From IMG/VR virus record IMGVR_UViG_3300030441_000216: 64,000 bases of DNA; one strand, 5' to 3'. The notes beneath the pieces are model-generated. The model worked only from the letters and a program-made list of their open reading frames with translations, did no database searches and was not told where the DNA came from. This DNA is from a virus. Below are positions 32,488-50,851 of this stretch, piece by piece; within the stretch, counting starts at the first letter, position 1; the number at the start of each line of letters is the position of its first letter. The position numbers and the translations under genes are program-made.

Positions 32488-32560
32488 TGGTCTGTGGTGA
32501 AGTGGTCAACACAACAGATTTTGATTCTGTCATTCGTGGGTTCAAGTCCCACCAGCCTAG
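32488..32560 (+). tRNA. tRNA-Gln(UUG)
   Basis: Hand-folded 73-nt cloverleaf: U8, A14, anticodon loop UUUUGAU (U33, anticodon UUG, A37), T-arm GTGGG-TTCAAGT-CCCAC, U1-A72. One acceptor mismatch (4-69) and one D-stem mismatch. The antisense ORF 32417..32638 shows the typical GWWDLNP artefact. Confidence 0.6.
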
Positions 32561-38426: not shown

Positions 38427-38870
38427 ATGACGTATAGAGAAGAAAATAAAGACTTATTTACAGTACCAGAAAATTATTATTTAGCACATTGTATTAGTGC
38501 AGATTTTGGAATGGGTAAAGGGATTGTAGTTGAATTCAATAAAAGATTTGATATGAAACGAAAATTACAGACAAAATATCCAGATTATCTTAATCAGTAT
38601 ACTCATAAGAGAATTGGTGGTGACTGTCTATTAGAGGGTAGGGTATTAAATCTTATTACAAAAGAGAGATATTTTCACAAACCAACAATTATCACAATGA
38701 GACTTGCACTTGAAAAGATGAAACAGATTTGTTTAAAAAATAATATCAAAAAGATTGCAATGCCTGTAATTGGTTGTGGTTTAGATAGGTTGAACTGGAA
38801 TGATGTCTCAGAACAGATTAAAGATGTTTTTGCAGATATGGATGTTGAGATTTTAGTGTGTAAGAGGTAA
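38427..38870 (+). CDS. macro-domain protein, TARG1/DarG-like subtype
   Basis: DLFTVPENYYLAHCISADFGMGKGIVVEFNKRF and IAMPVIGCGLDRLNW match the OARD1/TARG1-type macro domain (LAHCIS.D..MG.GIA). Confidence 0.8.
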   Translation: MTYREENKDLFTVPENYYLAHCISADFGMGKGIVVEFNKRFDMKRKLQTKYPDYLNQYTHKRIGGDCLLEGRVLNLITKERYFHKPTIITMRLALEKMKQICLKNNIKKIAMPVIGCGLDRLNWNDVSEQIKDVFADMDVEILVCKR

Positions 38871-38873
38871 ATT

Positions 38874-39647
38874 ATGGCAGTATATGTAACAGGTGATATA
38901 CATGGAAATCCTACACGATTAAGTAAAGATAATTTCTATGAACAGAAAGATTTTTCTGGTAATAGAGATGAGAACACTGTAATTATTTTAGGAGATTTCG
39001 GTCTTGTATGGAACAGAAATGGTGAAAGCAGGCGGGAAAAATATTGGTTGGATTGGTTAAATCAGAAACCATTCACAACAGTATTTATTGATGGAAATCA
39101 TGAGAACCATAAAAGACTTGCAACTTATCCTATAAAAGAATGGTGTGGCGGTAAGGTTCATGAAGTCAGATCCAATGTACTTCATCTAAAGCGTGGTGAG
39201 ATTTTTACTATAGAAGATAAGAAATTCTTTACATTTGGCGGTGCATCAAGTCACGATATTCAGGATGGTATTCTCGATTACAATGATGAAGATTGGAGAG
39301 AAGAAGCCAAGAAACTTGATAAGCAAGGAAAATATATGTATCGTATCAAAGATCTGTCTTGGTGGAAAGAAGAATTACCAACAGTTGAAGAAATGCAGCA
39401 TGGGTTAGAAATACTAAAAGAGAATAATAATGTAGTTGATTATATTATTACTCATAGTCCTTCTACATCAGAGTTATATCTTATGGGTGGTAAAGGATTA
39501 TATGAATCAGATATATTGACTAATTATTTGGAAGAAGTGAAAGCTACAACTGAATACAAAAAACATCTGTTTGGTCATATGCATTTAAATAAGGCAATCA
39601 ATGATAGAGATATTTGTTTGTATGAACAGATTGTTAGGATATTGTAA
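38874..39647 (+). CDS. calcineurin-like metallophosphoesterase (lambda-PPase/ApaH-like)
   Basis: Motifs GDIHG, GDFG..WNRNG, GNHE, ITHSP, FGHMH. Confidence 0.85.
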   Translation: MAVYVTGDIHGNPTRLSKDNFYEQKDFSGNRDENTVIILGDFGLVWNRNGESRREKYWLDWLNQKPFTTVFIDGNHENHKRLATYPIKEWCGGKVHEVRSNVLHLKRGEIFTIEDKKFFTFGGASSHDIQDGILDYNDEDWREEAKKLDKQGKYMYRIKDLSWWKEELPTVEEMQHGLEILKENNNVVDYIITHSPSTSELYLMGGKGLYESDILTNYLEEVKATTEYKKHLFGHMHLNKAINDRDICLYEQIVRIL

Positions 39648-40612: not shown

Positions 40613-41536
40613 TTGACAGAGAATAATGAAAAAAATAATTCTCAAGGGCTACGAGTATTAAGTTTATGTGGTGGCGTTGAAACAGGATTGTATGCGTTAC
40701 AGCAGCTCGGAATATCTATAAGAGAATATCATACATATGAAATTTTGCCAGAAGCCATAGCGGTTTCTCAGTACCATTTTCCGTTTGTGGTACATCATGG
40801 CGATTTATATGAAGCGGATTTTGAACAGTTCAAAGGATTTGATTTACTGTTGGCAGGAACTTGTTGTCAGTCACTTTCAAGAGTACGAATTGAAAGTAAA
40901 GAGGTCAATAATGGTCTTGATGGTAAGTCAAGAATTTTCTTTAAAGCTATTGAGTGTCTTAGGGCAATTCAGCCCAAATATTTCATGTTTGAGAATGTAA
41001 TACCAAGTAGTGACGAAGATCTGAAGACAATGACAGAATGTATTGGTGTAGAACCTATTTTAATTGATTCAGGAAAATTTTCTGCACAGAGTCGTGAAAG
41101 ATATTATTGGACAAACATACCATTAGGTAAATTACCTGATGAATCTCCATTAGTTTTGAAAGATATTATGGAGAATAGTGTAGATGAGAAATATTTCTAT
41201 AAGAAAGATTTTGAAATCTTGGATATGCAAAAGCGTGTATGTGCAGAGTTGAAAGTTAATACAACTGAGATGTGCAAACGTATTTTTAATCCAGATTTCA
41301 AAATGTCTACATTAACTTGCGTGTCAGGTGGATATCAGGAAAAGAAGGTATTAGATAGGGGTAAACCACGAAAACTTACAGAAGTTGAATATGAAAGATT
41401 ACAGGGATTGCCTGATAATTTTACAAAAATTCAGCTTAACAATCGTTGGTTGTCATACTCAAAAAGATGTAGTTTGATGGGTAATGGATGGAATGAACCT
41501 ACTGTTGAATGGATTTTGAGTGGGTTAAGAGAATAA
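40613..41536 (+). CDS. DNA (cytosine-5)-methyltransferase
   Basis: Motif I LSLCGGVETG, motif IV GTCCQSLS (PCQ-like), ENV motif FMFENV, motif X MGNGW. TTG start 40613 with no SD; the TTGACA at the start also looks like a -35 element. Confidence 0.85.
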   Translation: MTENNEKNNSQGLRVLSLCGGVETGLYALQQLGISIREYHTYEILPEAIAVSQYHFPFVVHHGDLYEADFEQFKGFDLLLAGTCCQSLSRVRIESKEVNNGLDGKSRIFFKAIECLRAIQPKYFMFENVIPSSDEDLKTMTECIGVEPILIDSGKFSAQSRERYYWTNIPLGKLPDESPLVLKDIMENSVDEKYFYKKDFEILDMQKRVCAELKVNTTEMCKRIFNPDFKMSTLTCVSGGYQEKKVLDRGKPRKLTEVEYERLQGLPDNFTKIQLNNRWLSYSKRCSLMGNGWNEPTVEWILSGLRE

Positions 41537-41593: not shown

Positions 41594-42097
41594 ATGATAA
41601 TAAATAGAATTTGGCAGATGCCAAGTAGTAATACATTTTCAATTAAGCCAATTAAGGAATTGATTGAGAAATATGCAACTGGTAAGATTGTTGATCCGTT
41701 TGCAAATAGTAATAAGCTGGCAACAGTAACAAATGACTTAGATACACAATATGATACTGATTACCATATGGACGCACTGAATTTCTTAAAGATATTCGAT
41801 GATAACTCAGTAGATACAGTGCTATATGATCCACCATACTCGCCACGACAGGTAAGCGAATGTTACAAAAATCTTGGACAGACAGTAAATATGCAGACAA
41901 CACAAGCTTCATATTGGTCTAAACAGAAGGAACAGATAGGAAGAATTGTAAAGAAAGATGGCATTGTAATTACTTGTAGCTGGAATAGTGGTGGCATTGG
42001 TAAGAAGTATGGCTTTGAAATTCAGGAAATTTTACTTGTTCCTCATGGTGGTTGGCACAATGACACGATTGTTGTGGTTGAAAAGAAGATTGAGTAG
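41594..42097 (+). CDS. DNA methyltransferase, N4/N6 DPPY class (small)
   Basis: VLYDPPYSPRQ motif. Start ATG 41594 or 41618. The 5' leader forms the hairpin AGGAGTAA-27 nt-TTACTCCT, which sequesters the SD. Confidence 0.75.
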   Translation: MIINRIWQMPSSNTFSIKPIKELIEKYATGKIVDPFANSNKLATVTNDLDTQYDTDYHMDALNFLKIFDDNSVDTVLYDPPYSPRQVSECYKNLGQTVNMQTTQASYWSKQKEQIGRIVKKDGIVITCSWNSGGIGKKYGFEIQEILLVPHGGWHNDTIVVVEKKIE

Positions 42098-43165: not shown

Positions 43166-43363
43166 ATGGTAGATATTCAATGTAAAGACGGAAAATATAT
43201 TATTGACGCAAGAATTCATAGTGAAGTTGATACAAATGATATTGCAAAAGTGCAGGAAAGATTTACTTCTGATTGTGCTTATGAGTTTGCAGAAGCTATG
43301 AGAGAAGCAGTAAACGTTAGCCATTTGGTAATGAAAGAACAAAGAAAAGAGGTAACAAAATGA
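43166..43363 (+). CDS. hypothetical small protein, start uncertain
   Basis: ORF-track 43112..43363, with ATG 43166 chosen just after the upstream stop. Confidence 0.4.
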   Translation: MVDIQCKDGKYIIDARIHSEVDTNDIAKVQERFTSDCAYEFAEAMREAVNVSHLVMKEQRKEVTK

Positions 43364-43872
43364 GAGAAACATTAATTGTTGTAGATATGCAGAATGATTT
43401 TATTGATGGAACACTTGGTACAAAGGAAGCACAGGCGATTGTATCAAATGTAGCAAAGAAAATTAAGGAGTACAAGGATGCTGGTAAACAGGTAATCTTT
43501 ACAAGAGACACACATCCCGAGAATTATTTAGAGACATATGAAGGTATACATCTTCCTGTTACTCACTGTGTAAAGAATACTGCTGGTTGGCAGATTTTAG
43601 ATAAGTTAGATTTTGATATTGATAATGACATTCTGATTGACAAAATTACTTTTGGATGGACTCATTGGGATGATTTTAGATTTGAAAGCGTTGAGATTTG
43701 CGGATTATGCACCGATATCTGCGTGATTTCAAATGCACTTATTATTAGAGCAAACTATCCTGAGATTGATATTACAGTAGATGCAAGCTGTTGTGCAGGT
43801 GTCACACCTGATACTCACAAGGCTGCATTAGCAACTATGAAGATGTGTCAGATTGAAGTGATTGGAGAGTAG
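43360..43872 (+). CDS. pncA: isochorismatase-family hydrolase, nicotinamidase (PncA)-like
   Basis: LIVVDMQNDFIDG (Asp), K in the KNTAGW region, and the catalytic Cys context CGLCTDICVISNAL. Confidence 0.8.
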   Translation: MRETLIVVDMQNDFIDGTLGTKEAQAIVSNVAKKIKEYKDAGKQVIFTRDTHPENYLETYEGIHLPVTHCVKNTAGWQILDKLDFDIDNDILIDKITFGWTHWDDFRFESVEICGLCTDICVISNALIIRANYPEIDITVDASCCAGVTPDTHKAALATMKMCQIEVIGE

Positions 43873-43875
43873 AAT

Positions 43876-44712
43876 ATGATTAAAATTAATGGCGATATTG
43901 TAACAATCAATAAGTTCCCAGATGGAACACCAAGAGTAAATATTGATATAAACAACATTGAGGAAGACTCTTATGATGGCTCTCCTTGTATTTGGATTGA
44001 ATGGATTTATGAGAGTAACGATGAGATATTTTATCTGATGTTAGTAAAGAAACATCTTGAAAGATTTTTTACTAATGTGGATTATTATTTGTCTCTTCCA
44101 TATATTCCTAATGCACGAATGGATAGAGTAAAAAATGATGATGAAGTATTCACATTGAAGTATTTTTGCGATTTTATCAATTGGTTAGGATTTTCATCAG
44201 TTTATGTTTTAGATGCTCATAGCGATGTTTCTACTGCATTACTCAATAATTGTGTAAAAGAAAATCCAAAAGAGTATGTTGATAAAGCTATTTCAAAGAT
44301 TGGTATGAGAAATCTTGTACTTTATTTTCCAGATGCAGGTGCAGCTAAGAGATATTCAGATTTATTCCCTGAGTTACCGTATTGTTATGGTGAAAAGAAG
44401 AGAGATTGGAAGACTGGTAAAATCCTTGGATTAGACATTAGAACAAATGGTATTGATTTGAAGGATAAAGCTGTGTTAATGATTGATGATATTATCGCAT
44501 ATGGCGGTTCACTTTATTATAGTGCAGAAGAATTAAAGAAACATGGTGTAACTGAGATTTATGCGTATGCAACACATACAGAGAATTCAATTCTTGATAA
44601 AGAAAAAGGAACGTTGATCAAGTCTTTGGAGAATAATACAGTGAACAGATTATTTACGACAAACAGTTTATTTAATGGTAGTCATGAAAAAATTACAGTT
44701 ATGGAGGTTTAA
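43876..44712 (+). CDS. ribose-phosphate pyrophosphokinase (Prs)-family protein, candidate ADPR-pyrophosphate synthetase (Adps-like)
   Basis: Aligns by eye to Prs: KFPDGTPRVNI, LPYIPNARMDRV, VLDAHSD, FPDAGAAKRYSDL, VLMIDDIIAYGGSL...IYAYATH (PRPP-binding loop). Confidence 0.85.
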   Translation: MIKINGDIVTINKFPDGTPRVNIDINNIEEDSYDGSPCIWIEWIYESNDEIFYLMLVKKHLERFFTNVDYYLSLPYIPNARMDRVKNDDEVFTLKYFCDFINWLGFSSVYVLDAHSDVSTALLNNCVKENPKEYVDKAISKIGMRNLVLYFPDAGAAKRYSDLFPELPYCYGEKKRDWKTGKILGLDIRTNGIDLKDKAVLMIDDIIAYGGSLYYSAEELKKHGVTEIYAYATHTENSILDKEKGTLIKSLENNTVNRLFTTNSLFNGSHEKITVMEV

Positions 44713-44716
44713 AATT

Positions 44717-46177
44717 ATGGATAACACAATGGCTTTATTATTATCAGATACTTATAAACAGTGTCATGATCGCATGTACCCAAATGGTTTGACTAAATTG
44801 GTGTCGTATTGGGTGCCTAGAAAATCAATGTTAGAGAATCAGAATGAAATGGTTTTCTTTGGATTACAGGCATTTATCAAAGAATATTTAATGGGATATT
44901 TTCAGAAAAATTTCTTCGATTTATCGGAAGATGAGATGCTAACTCTTTATACAGATTCGATGGACGTACAGATTGGTAGAGACAACTATGATTTAGATAA
45001 AATTGTAGAGCTTCACAGATTAAGATATTTACCACTTGAGATTAGAGCATTACCAGAAGGTACACTTGTTCCTATGGGTGTTCCTTGTATTGAGATTACA
45101 AATACGGATGATAAATTTGCTTGGCTTGTTCAGTGGATCGAATGTATTCTTCAGGTAGAATTATGGAAGCCTTGTTGTCATGCAACTATCGGTCATATGT
45201 ATCGTGAGATTGCAGATTATTGGTATAACAAGACAACAGACGGGTTGCCTGGAAATATGGCTTGTGCAGATTTTGGCATGAGAGGAATGTCTTGTATGGA
45301 TGAAGCTACAAGATGTTCAGCATCATGGTTGCTTTCATTTAATAAGACATCTACAATTCCAGCAATTAATTATATTGATAGATATTACAATGCCGATTGT
45401 AAGAATAATGGTATTGGAATCGGTGCTGTCTCAACTGAGCATTCTGTAATGGGGGCTAATTTCTCAATTGATGGAGATGAGATTACGTTCGTTAAGAGAC
45501 TTTTAACAGAGTTATATCCAAATACATCATTTAGTATGGTTTCAGATACTTATGATTATTGGAATATGGTAAATAATATTCTTCCACAGTGTAAAGAAGA
45601 GATTATGAATCATAATGGAAAGCTCTTGGTTCGTCCTGATAGTGGTGATATTGTAGAGATTTCAGTTAAGACAGTTGAAAGGTTATGGGAGATTTTTGGT
45701 GGTTCTGTAAATGGTAAAGGTTATAAGGTATTAAATCCGCATATCGGTATTATTTATGGTGATGGCTGCACACTTTCTAATGTAGAAACTATTTGGAAAG
45801 AATTAGAAAAGCGTGGTTTCGCAGCTAATAATATTGCTTATGGTGTAGGAGCTTTTTGCTTCACTGCAATCGTTGAAAATGGCAAGATGATTGTTGTTAC
45901 AAGAGATACTTTTGGTATTGCAATGAAAGCTACATATGGAGTAATTGATGGTAAGAAGTTAATGATTTTCAAAGATCCTAAGACAGATACGAGTCACTTA
46001 AAGAAATCTCATAAAGGATGTTGTAGAGTATACGATGATAACGGTGAATTAAAGTGTCAAGATCAGTTACTTGAAATGAGTGATAACAGTTTACTTACTA
46101 CCGTATTTAAAGATGGAGAGTTAGTAAGAGAAGATACATTTGCGGATATCAGAAACAGAATGTACGGAGGTAAGTAA
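44717..46177 (+). CDS. nicotinamide phosphoribosyltransferase (NAMPT/NadV)-family protein, candidate Namat-like
   Basis: N-terminus LLLSDTYKQCHDRMYPNG matches the NAMPT start (LLATDSYKVTHYKQYPP). 486 aa; ATG 44717 lies 9 nt after GGAGG. Confidence 0.8.
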   Translation: MDNTMALLLSDTYKQCHDRMYPNGLTKLVSYWVPRKSMLENQNEMVFFGLQAFIKEYLMGYFQKNFFDLSEDEMLTLYTDSMDVQIGRDNYDLDKIVELHRLRYLPLEIRALPEGTLVPMGVPCIEITNTDDKFAWLVQWIECILQVELWKPCCHATIGHMYREIADYWYNKTTDGLPGNMACADFGMRGMSCMDEATRCSASWLLSFNKTSTIPAINYIDRYYNADCKNNGIGIGAVSTEHSVMGANFSIDGDEITFVKRLLTELYPNTSFSMVSDTYDYWNMVNNILPQCKEEIMNHNGKLLVRPDSGDIVEISVKTVERLWEIFGGSVNGKGYKVLNPHIGIIYGDGCTLSNVETIWKELEKRGFAANNIAYGVGAFCFTAIVENGKMIVVTRDTFGIAMKATYGVIDGKKLMIFKDPKTDTSHLKKSHKGCCRVYDDNGELKCQDQLLEMSDNSLLTTVFKDGELVREDTFADIRNRMYGGK

Positions 46178-46638
46178 TGATTAAAATTATTGATGGAGAC
46201 TTGCTCACTTCGAACACTGATATTATTGCGCACCAGGTTAATTGCAAAGGTGCTTTTAATTCTGGTGTTGCAAAAGCGATCCGTGATTATGATGCGCAAG
46301 TATATAAAGATTATCATAGTTTTTGTTCGATTAATACACCTGAACAATTATTGGGTTCTGTTAGATATTTTCAGTCTAATATTGACGCAAGAATATATGC
46401 AAATTTATTTGCACAAAAATCATATGGCTATGACGGAAAACAGTATACAGATATTAATTCTTTAAGAAAATGTTTTGAAAATTTGAGATCATATGCGGTT
46501 TTGGAAAATATGAGTATTGCAATGCCATATAAAATTGGCTGTGTTCGTGGCGGTGCAAATTGGGAGGAAGTACATCAAATGATAGAGGATATTTTTTATG
46601 ATTGCAATGTTGAATTATGGAGGCTTGACAAAGGATGA
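46177..46638 (+). CDS. macro-domain protein (second copy)
   Basis: IIDGDLLTSNTDIIAHQVNCKGAFNSGVAKAI matches GDIT...DAIVNAAN..L.GGGV..AI. Confidence 0.8.
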   Translation: MIKIIDGDLLTSNTDIIAHQVNCKGAFNSGVAKAIRDYDAQVYKDYHSFCSINTPEQLLGSVRYFQSNIDARIYANLFAQKSYGYDGKQYTDINSLRKCFENLRSYAVLENMSIAMPYKIGCVRGGANWEEVHQMIEDIFYDCNVELWRLDKG

Positions 46639-47048
46639 TAAATGAATTTAGAGGTAAATATTATTTTTTAAGCAACTTTTATTCTTCTCCTGTTACATAT
46701 GAAGGACTTACATATTTGAATAATGAAGCCGCTTTTCAATCAGCAAAAACTTTTTCAGATAGAGAATGTTTCACGAATTTAGATCCATCATCTGCAAAGA
46801 AACTTGGCAGAAGAGTTCAGCTTCGATCTGATTGGGAAGATGTGAAGTACAACGTTATGTACGAAATTGTAAAAGCGAAATTTACTCAAAATTTAAAGCT
46901 CAAAGCAAAGTTACTTGAGACTGATAATCAGCATCTCGAAGAAGGTAATACTTGGGGTGATAAAATTTGGGGCACAGTGAATGGTGTTGGAGAAAATAAT
47001 TTAGGAAAAATTCTTATGAGAGTTAGAGAGGAGATTAGACATGAGTAA
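46635..47048 (+). CDS. NADAR/YbiA-like (DUF1768) protein
   Basis: GKYYFLSNFYSSPVTYEGLTYLNNEAAFQSAK...WGDKIWG fits the NADAR signature (FLSNF...E..FQ..K). Confidence 0.75.
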   Translation: MINEFRGKYYFLSNFYSSPVTYEGLTYLNNEAAFQSAKTFSDRECFTNLDPSSAKKLGRRVQLRSDWEDVKYNVMYEIVKAKFTQNLKLKAKLLETDNQHLEEGNTWGDKIWGTVNGVGENNLGKILMRVREEIRHE

Positions 47049-47778
47049 TTTTGATGTAAAGAAAGCAACTAATGATTGCGTTCAGTGGATTAAGGATTTC
47101 TTTGAACAGAATGGTAAAGATTGTATGGCAGTAGTGGGTATCTCAGGCGGAAAGGATTCAAGTGTTGTGGCAGCATTATGTGTAGAAGCTCTTAGTAAGG
47201 ATAGAGTAATTGGAGTCCTTATGCCACAAGGAGAACAAAGTGATATCGAATATTCAAAAATGTTGGTTGACTTTTTAGACATCACTAGAATTACGTGCAA
47301 TATTGAGGGTGCTGTCAATGAAGTGTTAGAGAGTTTTGAAGGTGTAGTTTCACCGACACCTCAGACAACAACAAATCTTCCTGCTCGTATTCGTATGGCT
47401 ACATTATATGCTATTTCTCAGTCAGTAAATGGTCGTGTTGCTAATACGTGTAATCTTTCCGAAAATTGGGTAGGTTACGCCACAAAATATGGTGACGCTG
47501 CTGGTGATTTCAGTCCGTTATCTCAGCTTACAGTAACAGAGGTTAAAGCTATTGGTCGTGAGTTGGGACTTCCGTCAGAATTAGTTGATAAGACACCTAC
47601 CGATGGTCTTTGCGGAAAGACTGATGAAGATAACCTTGGATTTACTTATGCTGAATTAGATGCATATATCAGAGATGGAATTGAGCCAAACGAGGAAGTA
47701 AAAACTAAGATTGATTCAATGCATGAGAAAAATCTGTTTAAATTACAGCCAATGCCAAGTTTTGTGTACCAGGCGTAA
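47041..47778 (+). CDS. nadE: NH3-dependent NAD+ synthetase
   Basis: PP-loop VVGISGGKDSSV, RIRMATLYAIS, ENWVGYATKYGDAAGDFSPL, DKTPTDGL...DEDNLGFTYAELDAYI. Confidence 0.9.
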   Translation: MSNFDVKKATNDCVQWIKDFFEQNGKDCMAVVGISGGKDSSVVAALCVEALSKDRVIGVLMPQGEQSDIEYSKMLVDFLDITRITCNIEGAVNEVLESFEGVVSPTPQTTTNLPARIRMATLYAISQSVNGRVANTCNLSENWVGYATKYGDAAGDFSPLSQLTVTEVKAIGRELGLPSELVDKTPTDGLCGKTDEDNLGFTYAELDAYIRDGIEPNEEVKTKIDSMHEKNLFKLQPMPSFVYQA

Positions 47779-49987: not shown

Positions 49988-50851
49988 ATGTTAGAGATTA
50001 ACAAAATATACAATGAAGATTGTCTTGAAGGTATGAAAAAGATTGATGATAAGTCAATTGATTTTATCTTCACGGATTTGCCTTATAATACGACCAATAA
50101 TTTTTGGGAATGTGAAATGCCGTTAAATGATTATGTCGAGTTATCAGGTCAATATTTTTATGAAACAGATTTATTTAAGTTAGCTCAAGTAACAAATAGT
50201 AGTCTTGAATATACAAGAGATTGGTTTTATGAGAACAAAAAAGATGGTTTATGGACTCATTACAATCGAATCATCAAAGATAATGGTTGTATTGCATTAT
50301 GGGCGCAGTCACCATTTGATAAGAGACTCGCTTGTAGTAATGAAAAATTGTATCGCTATGAATGGATTATCGAAAAGACCAAAGCAACTGGTCATCTAAA
50401 TGCTAAGAAAATGCCTATGAAGGCACACGAAAATGTTTTGATTTTCTATAAAAAACTCCCTACTTACAATCCACAAATGACAGAAGGACATACACCTGTT
50501 CATTCTTATACAAAACATACAACAGATGGCAACTGTTATGGTGCTACAAAGACTGGTATTTCAGGTGGTGGCAGTACACAAAGATATCCAAGAGATGTTC
50601 TGCAGTTCAAGTGGGATACTCAGAAAAGTAGCTTACATCAGTGCCAAAAGCCTGTTGAAGCATGTGAGTATTTTATTAAGACCTACACCAATCCAGGAGA
50701 TTTAGTTCTTGATTCGTGTGCAGGAAGTTGTACAACTGCAGTTGCAGCTTTGAATATAGGTAGAAATTATATATGTTTTGAGAAGGACAAGGATATTTTT
50801 GAGGTTGGAAGTAAGAGAGTAGCTGAGTGCAAAGGAGAGAAAAATGACTGA
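49988..50851 (+). CDS. DNA methyltransferase, N4/N6 class (DPPY-type)
   Basis: FIFTDLPYNT (DPPY-like) and LVLDSCAGSCTTAVAALNIGRNYICFEKD (AdoMet-binding FxGxG-like, at the C-terminus). Confidence 0.8.
   Translation: MLEINKIYNEDCLEGMKKIDDKSIDFIFTDLPYNTTNNFWECEMPLNDYVELSGQYFYETDLFKLAQVTNSSLEYTRDWFYENKKDGLWTHYNRIIKDNGCIALWAQSPFDKRLACSNEKLYRYEWIIEKTKATGHLNAKKMPMKAHENVLIFYKKLPTYNPQMTEGHTPVHSYTKHTTDGNCYGATKTGISGGGSTQRYPRDVLQFKWDTQKSSLHQCQKPVEACEYFIKTYTNPGDLVLDSCAGSCTTAVAALNIGRNYICFEKDKDIFEVGSKRVAECKGEKND

Follow-up and report, generated by a model that had tools for sequence, protein, structure and literature searches.

Layout of the island

In a stretch of viral DNA of 64,000 nt (IMGVR_UViG_3300030441_000216; hereafter the window, to which all window positions refer), six consecutive genes encode proteins related to NAD+ and ADP-ribose (ADPR), and four of them may form the core of a pathway that rebuilds NAD+ from its breakdown products. 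The genes are:

43360..43872, + strand: PncA-like nicotinamidase, core; 170 aa; isochorismatase PF00857, E=2.6e-28
43876..44712, + strand: Adps-like enzyme of the PRPS fold, core; 278 aa; phrog_619, E=1e-64
44717..46177, + strand: Namat-family transferase variant, core; 486 aa; PRK09198, 464 bits; phrog_448, E=3.5e-161
46177..46638, + strand: macro-domain protein, accessory; 153 aa; phrog_335 ('phosphatase'), E=3e-38
46635..47048, + strand: NADAR-domain protein, accessory; 137 aa; PF08719, E=2.7e-27
47041..47778, + strand: NH3-dependent NAD+ synthetase NadE, core; 245 aa; TIGR00552, 186 bits (cut-off 63.65)

The first-pass annotation of this DNA had described six packed, partly overlapping genes and had assigned them to the isochorismatase, PRPS, NAMPT, macro, NADAR and NadE families. 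All six were found at these positions on one strand, with junctions ranging from a 4-nt gap to an 8-nt overlap, and profile matches agreed with each of the six assignments. A Shine-Dalgarno-like GGAG/GAGG motif lies 5' of every start, and no convincing internal terminator was found within the island. The Adps-like and Namat-like genes are co-oriented and separated by 4 nt, each with its own ribosome-binding site. For the transferase a longer open reading frame (ORF) opens at 44675; the start at 44717 is favoured because it has its own GGAGG ribosome-binding site. The six genes form one translationally coupled operon.

With regard to the flanking genes, the best solved relative of the PncA-like protein is the pyrazinamidase/nicotinamidase of Pyrococcus horikoshii (1ILW/1IM5; full-length alignment, 64.6 bits). 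Its catalytic residues D9, K95 and C121 and metal ligands D50, H52 and H69 align with D10, K94, C133, D52, H54 and H71 of the P. horikoshii enzyme and are invariant in 150 unique homologues. NadE is a single-domain protein of 245 aa without a glutaminase domain, and its sixteen top-scoring solved relatives all carry the name NH3-dependent NAD+ synthetase or NAD+ synthetase in the PDB. When the island (43360-47778) was compared with that of a close relative (L001:6647-11068), the Adps-like, Namat-like, macro and NADAR proteins were 99-100% identical, versus 71% for PncA and 83% for NadE; the flanking genes therefore recombine separately from the block between them.

The Prs-like protein belongs to the Adps family

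The NAD+ reconstitution pathway NARP1 consists of Adps and Namat (Osterman et al., bioRxiv 10.1101/2024.02.11.579819; structures in PMC12774641 and PMC13586617), and the first-pass annotation had taken the adjacent Prs-like and NAMPT-like genes for such a pair. When the two proteins were compared with Adps/Namat and with Prs/NAMPT, both turned out to be nearer to Adps/Namat. A canonical-Adps profile, built solely from Prs-like genes adjoining canonical Namat, gave 231 bits for the Prs-like protein of the window and 121 bits for E. coli Prs. Identity was 37-39% to Adps of SPbetaL1 versus 22% to E. coli Prs. In the PRPP (phosphoribosyl pyrophosphate) synthetase model TIGR01251, which has a cut-off of 113, the window protein scored 91 bits and the validated Adps proteins of SPbetaL1 and ICP1 scored 106 and 98, respectively. 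With neighbour-joining trees rooted on E. coli Prs, 96 of 100 bootstraps had the window protein within the clade bounded by the Adps enzymes of ICP1 and SPbetaL1.

Functional residues were mapped from the ICP1 sequence, in which all 15 residues named in the structure paper were confirmed at the numbers given there. Seven of them (F18, R87, H121, D161, the catalytic K185, D212 and D213 of ICP1 Adps) are identical in the window protein, and these seven are nearly invariant across 132 homologues associated with the Ser/Ala-type transferases described below. The protein, with its 278 aa, also lacks the C-terminal extension of PRPS. Against a PDB set without the solved Adps structures, its top match was the PRPP synthetase of B. 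subtilis, at 52 bits. As judged from these comparisons, the Prs-like protein is a member of the Adps family and not a true PRPP synthetase. Adps of SPbetaL1 has been validated biochemically, and no Prs-type product was observed.

The transferase is a Namat variant with an altered base pocket

The top PDB matches of the NAMPT-like protein were 9W5W/9W5X, which represent Namat of SPbetaL1 (384 bits; 43% identity), versus about 186 bits for human NAMPT. The second-best structure was 9KE8/9KEO (306 bits). The ribosyl-transfer core is kept: D13, Y15, F189, R192, H245, R306, D308, D361, R399 and D400 of SPbetaL1 Namat correspond to D11, Y13, F186, R189, H242, R306, D308, D349, R396 and D397 in the window, and each of these is found in 63/63 Ser/Ala-type sequences or in all but one or two. 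Two stretches of the gene depart from published Namat:

45350..45352, + strand: codon of Ser212, the diagnostic substitution (equivalent to SPbetaL1 Namat Asp215 and human NAMPT Asp219)
45848..45907, + strand: selectivity-clamp helix segment GAFCFTAIVENGKMIVVTRD, residues 378-397, with a 9-residue insertion at about 384-392

Asp215 of SPbetaL1 Namat hydrogen-bonds the amide of nicotinamide (PMC12774641). Besides S212 in place of D215, the pocket of the window protein has S239 (A242 in SPbetaL1), A184 (H187) and K210 (G213). Throughout its subfamily, the residue equivalent to Asp215 is Ser, Ala or Val. We compared 200 non-redundant sequences, divided into those with Asp or Glu and those with Ser or Ala at the position equivalent to Asp215 (position 215 in the following), and the columns that best separated the two groups lie in or beside the nicotinamide pocket (SPbetaL1 numbering):

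Position 215: Asp or Glu in the Asp/Glu group; Ser or Ala in the Ser/Ala group
Position 242 (a named pocket residue): Ala in 133/135; Ser in 62/63
Position 187: His in 134/135; Gly, Ser, Cys or Ala
Position 213: Gly in 133/135; Lys or Asn

Positions 239, 240 and 304 likewise differ between the groups, whereas the ribosyl-transfer and phosphate-contact residues are all invariant in both. A pocket that switches around an invariant core is the pattern expected if the base substrate changed and the chemistry was retained. Loss of the Asp would relieve the repulsion of a carboxylate, and the changes to Ser and Lys could bind it. The same Asp-to-Ser change has been engineered in human NAMPT, where D219S (Khan et al. 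2006) is tabulated as a substrate-affinity switch (PMC4919578); that protein was a single mutant of a PRPP-dependent enzyme, whereas here the change is natural, is accompanied by three further pocket changes and occurs in a Namat-type protein.

The canonical Namat clamp has the 11-residue motif GSXphiXphiXphiTRD, with aromatics at positions 3 and 7. In the window the corresponding segment GAFCFTAIVENGKMIVVTRD has 20 residues, of which F380 and F382 are retained (Phe at position 3). Because Asp215, the clamp motif and the stacking residue of the loop termed SCL are not as published for Namat, the transferase is, on its residues, a Namat variant and not a strict member of that family. The clamp insertion was considered as the key feature of the variant and was rejected, since PncA and NadE are likewise encoded alongside Ser/Ala215 forms whose clamp is canonical. 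Such forms include the human-gut phage Phass-1 and about ten representative clusters, all of which have an 11-residue clamp, and several have the exact canonical motif together with R40.

Many Namat-family representatives are 550-900 aa, much longer than the usual length of about 490 aa, and match the family in two or three stretches (also L083:6001-7749). In one of them, P0150, an insertion of about 280 residues lies inside the clamp motif, beginning with Cys and ending in His-Asn in an intein-like manner. This suggests that long Namat-family proteins may contain inteins or other insertions at active-site positions.

PncA and NadE accompany the altered pocket

To see how the pocket residues relate to gene content, we took 234 loci surrounding genes of the Namat family, drawn from phage records and viral contigs. 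In each locus the residue at position 215 and the neighbouring genes were recorded, and the result was rechecked with profile hidden Markov models. Asp/Glu or Ser/Ala could be scored in 228 loci:

Asp/Glu at 215: 52 loci; PncA in 0; NadE in 0; clamp of 11 aa (18 aa in one locus)
Ser/Ala at 215: 176 loci; PncA in 173; NadE in 171; clamp of 17-27 aa

The Ser/Ala-type loci without a PncA or NadE match were short, and those checked were cut by a contig end; this includes the five without NadE, all of them short and truncated in this way. The Prs-like gene was present in both groups and adjoined the transferase in about 175/176 Ser/Ala-type loci. The macro gene occurred in roughly three quarters of the Ser/Ala-type loci, and NADAR in 32/176 of these (in the Ser subclade only) and in 5/52 Asp/Glu-type loci. 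The macro and NADAR genes are thus dispensable accessories and do not belong to the core. The linkage also withstands rearrangement: in the Ala clade PncA follows NadE, and in one locus an IS605-type element lies between the transferase and NadE.

Two loci, L260 and L261, appeared to lack the module, but they are not firm exceptions because the contig of L261 ends 1.2 kb upstream of the gene and because L263, in which the clamp is identical, has PncA and a Prs-like gene 3.3 kb upstream.

The association was not confined to close relatives of the window protein, which in the homologue search were 71-98% identical to it, and it held down to about 40% sequence identity. A search of 1.84 billion sequences clustered at 50% identity returned 150 family members, in which position 215 was Asp in 94, Ala in 30, Ser in 20, Glu in two, Val in one, Lys in one and gapped in two. 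All seven divergent Ser/Ala representatives with sufficient context had an isochorismatase, a Prs-like protein of 269-292 aa, the transferase and an NAD synthase; the contig of an eighth was too short to judge. The deposited genome of Phass-1 has the same four-gene set, for which the Phass-1 paper gives no interpretation. In bacterial assemblies, close relatives with the same genes were found in Lachnospiraceae, Roseburia, Ruminococcus and other gut Clostridia. Two of these modules are on large scaffolds of cultured isolates, namely KE159538.1 of Lachnospiraceae bacterium A4 (L251, 792 kb; Namat-like protein 83% identical) and a 499-kb scaffold of Ruminococcus sp. AM36-2AA (L254, 73% identical), implying that they are part of integrated or co-assembled prophage-like elements and that these bacteria are candidate hosts.

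The base pocket and the gene content bear directly on whether the island simply carries out canonical NARP1 chemistry, in which ADPR-pyrophosphate (ADPR-PP) and nicotinamide give NAD+, while PncA and NadE form a separate module running in parallel, unrelated to it, which boosts nicotinate salvage by the host or removes nicotinamide. The pairing of Adps and Namat and the conserved catalytic core agree with this, and a Ser at the equivalent of human NAMPT Asp219 is recorded as shifting, not abolishing, substrate use. However, four pocket positions switch together and do so only in homologues linked to PncA and NadE. The linkage is near-absolute in both directions and survives changes in gene order, insertion of a transposable element and transfer to bacterial chromosomes. 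Moreover, a phage nicotinamidase would destroy the nicotinamide needed by Namat of the same operon. We therefore regard unaltered NARP1 chemistry as highly improbable for this island.

A proposed deamidated route from ADPR to NAD+

The coordinated switch of the pocket residues with PncA and NadE, while the transfer residues stay invariant, argues for nicotinate as the base. In the pathway that we propose from these sequence patterns, the input would be the ADPR and nicotinamide released when an NADase splits NAD+. The PncA-like nicotinamidase would convert nicotinamide to nicotinate, and the Adps-like enzyme would form ADPR-PP and AMP from ADPR and ATP. The Namat variant would then join ADPR-PP and nicotinate into nicotinate adenine dinucleotide (NaAD), releasing pyrophosphate, and NadE would complete the cycle by converting NaAD, ATP and NH3 to NAD+. 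The macro protein could act as an optional feeder that turns ADPR-1''-phosphate, the product of RES-type NADases, into ADPR, and NADAR would be a further optional accessory.

The presumed retention of ADPR-PP as donor derives from the several Ser/Ala lineages that keep the exact Namat adenine clamp and R40. That the pathway may be closed follows from the content of the window, in which no NadD, NadR, NadM or PncB homologue and no ORF with an (H/T)xGH motif was found. This agrees with the first-pass annotation, which had reported no gene for an adenylyltransferase acting on nicotinamide mononucleotide (NMN). Searches with E. coli PncB and NadD using phmmer likewise gave no match at E<=1, either in the window or among 236 phage loci. 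Near the module, no adenylyltransferase was found in Ala-type loci or in any of the 7/7 sampled independent lineages.

We put the chances at about even that the island is a self-contained, deamidated version of NARP1 with PncA, the Adps-like enzyme, the Namat variant and NadE as its four core genes. The broader proposal, that Ser/Ala215 proteins of the Namat family are an undescribed nicotinate ADP-ribose transferase which together with PncA, Adps and NadE makes up a fourth, deamidated reconstitution pathway, could in our judgement equally well prove right or wrong. A deamido variant had already been put forward in the first-pass annotation. It is the best supported of the readings considered here, through the Adps clade, the kinship to Namat and the switch at position 215 together with PncA and NadE; the transferase did not, on the other hand, show the Asp215, clamp and SCL features of Namat, and a PRPP-based route through nicotinate mononucleotide (NaMN) is still viable.

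Several observations weigh against the deamidated Adps/Namat reading. In the Adps-like protein, Phe221 of the donor-site cap (F221 and F223 in ICP1), which is invariant in 43 canonical Adps proteins, is replaced by Leu; the window has L221, Y222 and Y223, and its group has Met, Leu or Phe at 221 and aromatics at 222 and 223. In the transferase, the SCL stacking residue (Arg, Lys or Tyr at the third position of the loop; R40 in SPbetaL1) is Met38, although Arg is kept at this position in 52/63 Ser/Ala-type sequences. Position 7 of the clamp, equivalent to Y396, is Val, and the 9-residue insertion splits the motif. The subclade of the window thus has the most derived adenine clamp, and because of these three changes its preference for ADPR-PP could be lost. 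Namat enzymes are also known to keep PRPP activity in vitro, even with a mutated clamp. A phylogenetic bracket on the Namat side, asking if the window protein falls inside the ICP1-SPbetaL1 Namat clade, was unstable (no in the point tree, yes in 40/50 bootstraps) and was not used. A rough neighbour-joining tree placed most Ser/Ala forms in one large clade and the rest in a few small separate lineages, with at least three independent state changes at position 215 by parsimony; as most of these forms share one clade, the association rests on few independent events. Finally, the 64 kb of the window are part of a genome of about 150 kb, so an adenylyltransferase could lie elsewhere, and eight Ser-type relatives have a gene for a NadM-like NMN/NaMN adenylyltransferase within a few kb of the module, while another has a NadR-like one. 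Examples are:

L261:624-1187, L079:14485-15060 and L072:13031-13603: divergent NadM-like genes near the module in Ser-type relatives
L248:9453-10565: NadR-like gene 3' of NadE

The NadM-like gene of L261 lies directly upstream of the transferase. Among the matches listed, the gut-phage NadM-like gene was away from the module in 46/53 loci. As to its presence in the genomes of window-type phages, the overlap of contig names consisted of two already-known contigs only, among the matches listed, which is a weak negative. The L261 contig also has AAA_28 kinase-like and nucleoside 2-deoxyribosyltransferase-like genes, and thus a larger NAD island.

The main rival reading is a phage-boosted Preiss-Handler route via PRPP. 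In such a route PncA would supply nicotinate, the Prs-like enzyme PRPP and the transferase NaMN, which the NadD of the host or a NadM-like enzyme encoded elsewhere in the phage genome would convert to NaAD for NadE. NadD of Firmicute hosts prefers NaMN, and by the logic of this route a phage without its own adenylyltransferase must for that reason use the deamidated mononucleotide; gut Clostridia are the likely hosts. The base switch and the presence of PncA and NadE fit this route equally well, and so do the loss of two of the three adenine-stacking residues and the clamp insertion in the window subclade, the PRPP activity kept by Namat with a mutated clamp, and the NadM-like and NadR-like genes just described. 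Locus L260 also agrees with it: its Ser-type enzyme is accompanied by NadE, macro and NADAR, and neither a Prs-like nor a PncA gene lies within 8 kb. On the other hand, the Prs-like protein sits inside a validated Adps clade, so the route needs a reversion to PRPP synthesis, and Adps of SPbetaL1 gave no Prs-type product. The gene for this protein is kept beside the transferase in nearly all Ser/Ala-type loci, even though PRPP is already produced by the hosts. The same four genes also occur in those Ser/Ala lineages whose adenine clamp is fully canonical. Neither the window nor the Ala-type loci nor any of the seven sampled independent lineages has an adenylyltransferase, and the three characterised NARP pathways are self-sufficient. 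Taken together, we consider the PRPP route rather unlikely. The use of nicotinate and NadE, that is a deamidated route, is common to it and to the proposed ADPR-PP route, and can be predicted more firmly than either.

Accessory genes and the role of the island

The island macro protein scored 20.9 bits with Pfam Macro, just below the cut-off of 22. It is 34% identical (E=2e-24) to the macro protein of Vibrio phage F88 that is embedded between Adps and Namat, and the two gave the same ranking of PDB relatives, with Poa1p as only a weak match (E about 0.01-0.03) for both. Macro proteins embedded in NARP1 have been shown to be ADPR-1''-phosphate phosphatases (Adpp) that act on the product of RES-type NADases, forming NARP1-AP (bioRxiv 10.64898/2026.01.28.702374). 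Judged by these relationships, the island macro is probably an Adpp-type phosphatase yielding ADPR. The first-pass annotation had instead associated the macro gene with reversal of DarT-type or protein ADP-ribosylation. With the DarG model only the macro domain aligns (47.6 bits versus a cut-off of 250); the 153-aa protein has no C-terminal DarT-binding domain of DarG, and no DarT-like gene is found among its neighbours. As this second domain and the DarT partner are missing, Adpp is a better precedent than DarG. The NADAR protein matched PF08719 with 96.5 bits (cut-off 35.1) and TIGR02464 with 79 bits, also above cut-off.

A second macro gene lies upstream of the island, next to a phosphoesterase gene:

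38427-38870, + strand: second macro protein; phrog_335, E=3.5e-21
38874-39647, + strand: calcineurin-like metallophosphoesterase; phrog_1649, E=1.3e-34

These matches agree with the macro plus phosphoesterase pair that had been noted at 38427..39647. The two macro proteins of the window are distantly alike (32% over 73 residues), and the genes at 38427-39647 may be accessories related to the island. Homologues of the phosphoesterase are found repeatedly close to the module in relatives. In unrelated phages, too, NARP1-type modules have calcineurin-like phosphoesterase genes nearby, sometimes together with a second macro gene (L243:5478-6149, L083:933-3441). Our guess is that cyclic or phosphorylated ADPR derivatives would be their substrates.

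The role of the island may also be considered apart from its chemistry. Two copies of the four-gene core in bacterial chromosomes (L241:128-4614 and L244:6570-17217) lie near a NrtR-type Nudix/winged-helix regulator, with genes for a chemoreceptor, for kinases and for a tRNA synthetase among their neighbours. Such a setting suggests an ADPR-recycling operon under cellular regulation, the link to ADPR being drawn because both chromosomal versions sit near NrtR-type regulators. By extension, the island might be a general housekeeping operon for NAD+ and ADPR, carried as auxiliary metabolic genes under either chemistry and not specifically for counter-defence. The chromosomal copies beside regulators of NAD metabolism agree with such a role, and chromosomal NARP1 has been proposed in the literature to serve host homeostasis. 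In contrast, NARP1, NARP1-AP, NARP2 and NARP3 all counter NAD+-depleting defence, which by analogy points to the same purpose here, and an Adpp-type macro protein makes sense mainly against RES-type NADases. In a divergent phage, a gene resembling Tad2, the anti-Thoeris sponge, lies about 2 kb downstream of the four-gene module (L319:12004-12297, L320:12217-12510); with this neighbour so near to one module, an anti-defence gene neighbourhood is suggested. A pure housekeeping role seems improbable to us, and a role in counter-defence is predicted for the phage-borne modules.

Relation to known pathways

The island shares with NARP1 the adjacent, co-oriented genes of the Adps and Namat families with Adps upstream, the conserved functional residues and transfer core, and the likely input of ADPR released by NADases. 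It differs in having Ser in place of Asp215, switched residues at Ala242, His187 and Gly213, and a clamp motif and SCL residue not as published. It also includes PncA upstream and NadE downstream as additional, obligatory genes, and its transferase is predicted to yield NaAD and not NAD+. As in NARP1-AP, a macro gene is inside the operon, and its product is of the same subfamily as the F88 macro by its PDB relatives. Here, however, the gene follows the transferase instead of lying between the core genes and is dispensable across relatives.

NARP2 (Nampt and Nmnat of Vibrio phage KVP40) likewise has a NAMPT-family enzyme and rebuilds NAD+ from the free pyridine base. Unlike NARP2, the window is without an adenylyltransferase and has a Prs/Adps-like partner, and its transferase is much closer to Namat than to PRPP-type Nampt. 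The few relatives with NadM-like genes might combine both routes. With the Preiss-Handler pathway (PncA, PncB, NadD, NadE) the island shares PncA and NadE at the two ends, as well as the deamidated intermediates, but here there is no nicotinate phosphoribosyltransferase of the PncB family and no NadD; the Adps-like and Namat-like pair takes the place of both middle steps and would bypass the mononucleotide.

The papers on NARP1, NARP1-AP, RyDEP, NARP3 and the Namat/Adps structures make no mention of NadE, PncA, nicotinic acid as a Namat substrate or Asp215 variants. Full-text searches of the literature, in which not all journals are covered, for NARP1 with nicotinamidase, for ADPR-PP with NaAD and for phages with the four enzymes returned nothing relevant.

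If the proposed reactions are correct, they would include a new enzymatic reaction and add a new branch to the phage NAD+ reconstitution pathways, in which a compact system of four enzymes makes NAD+ from its breakdown products. ADPR would be converted to NAD+ via NaAD, in cells as well as phages, without a mononucleotide intermediate. Such a pathway would be abundant in phages of human-gut Clostridia, where single 90% clusters have more than 2,000 members, and fixed in NrtR-linked bacterial operons, which suggest an ADPR recycling route in bacteria. In the human gut, the module might then help to determine how well phages succeed against immunity that depletes NAD+. One may speculate that phages of gut Firmicutes go deamidated as host nicotinamidase or NaMN-specific enzymes make nicotinamide a poor substrate. 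For annotation, the residue at position 215 (Asp/Glu versus Ser/Ala) together with the change of Ala242 to Ser could serve as a rule for re-annotating "nicotinamide phosphoribosyltransferase" genes of the gut virome.

Other features of the window

Three ORFs around the island (40613-41536, 41594-42097 and 49988-50851) have DNA-methyltransferase-like motifs, as read from their translations; one is of the C5 type and two have DPPY- or DLPY-type motifs. The first part of the window (1-36000) has just 15 ORFs of at least 150 aa and a single tRNA-Gln(TTG) at 32488-32560. Recoding of a stop codon was suspected, given the few long ORFs in these 36 kb and the use of code 15 by Phass-1. It was rejected, as each alternative code (TAG, TGA or TAA reassigned) added similar ORF coverage and gave no signal; the first 36 kb are simply dense in small genes.

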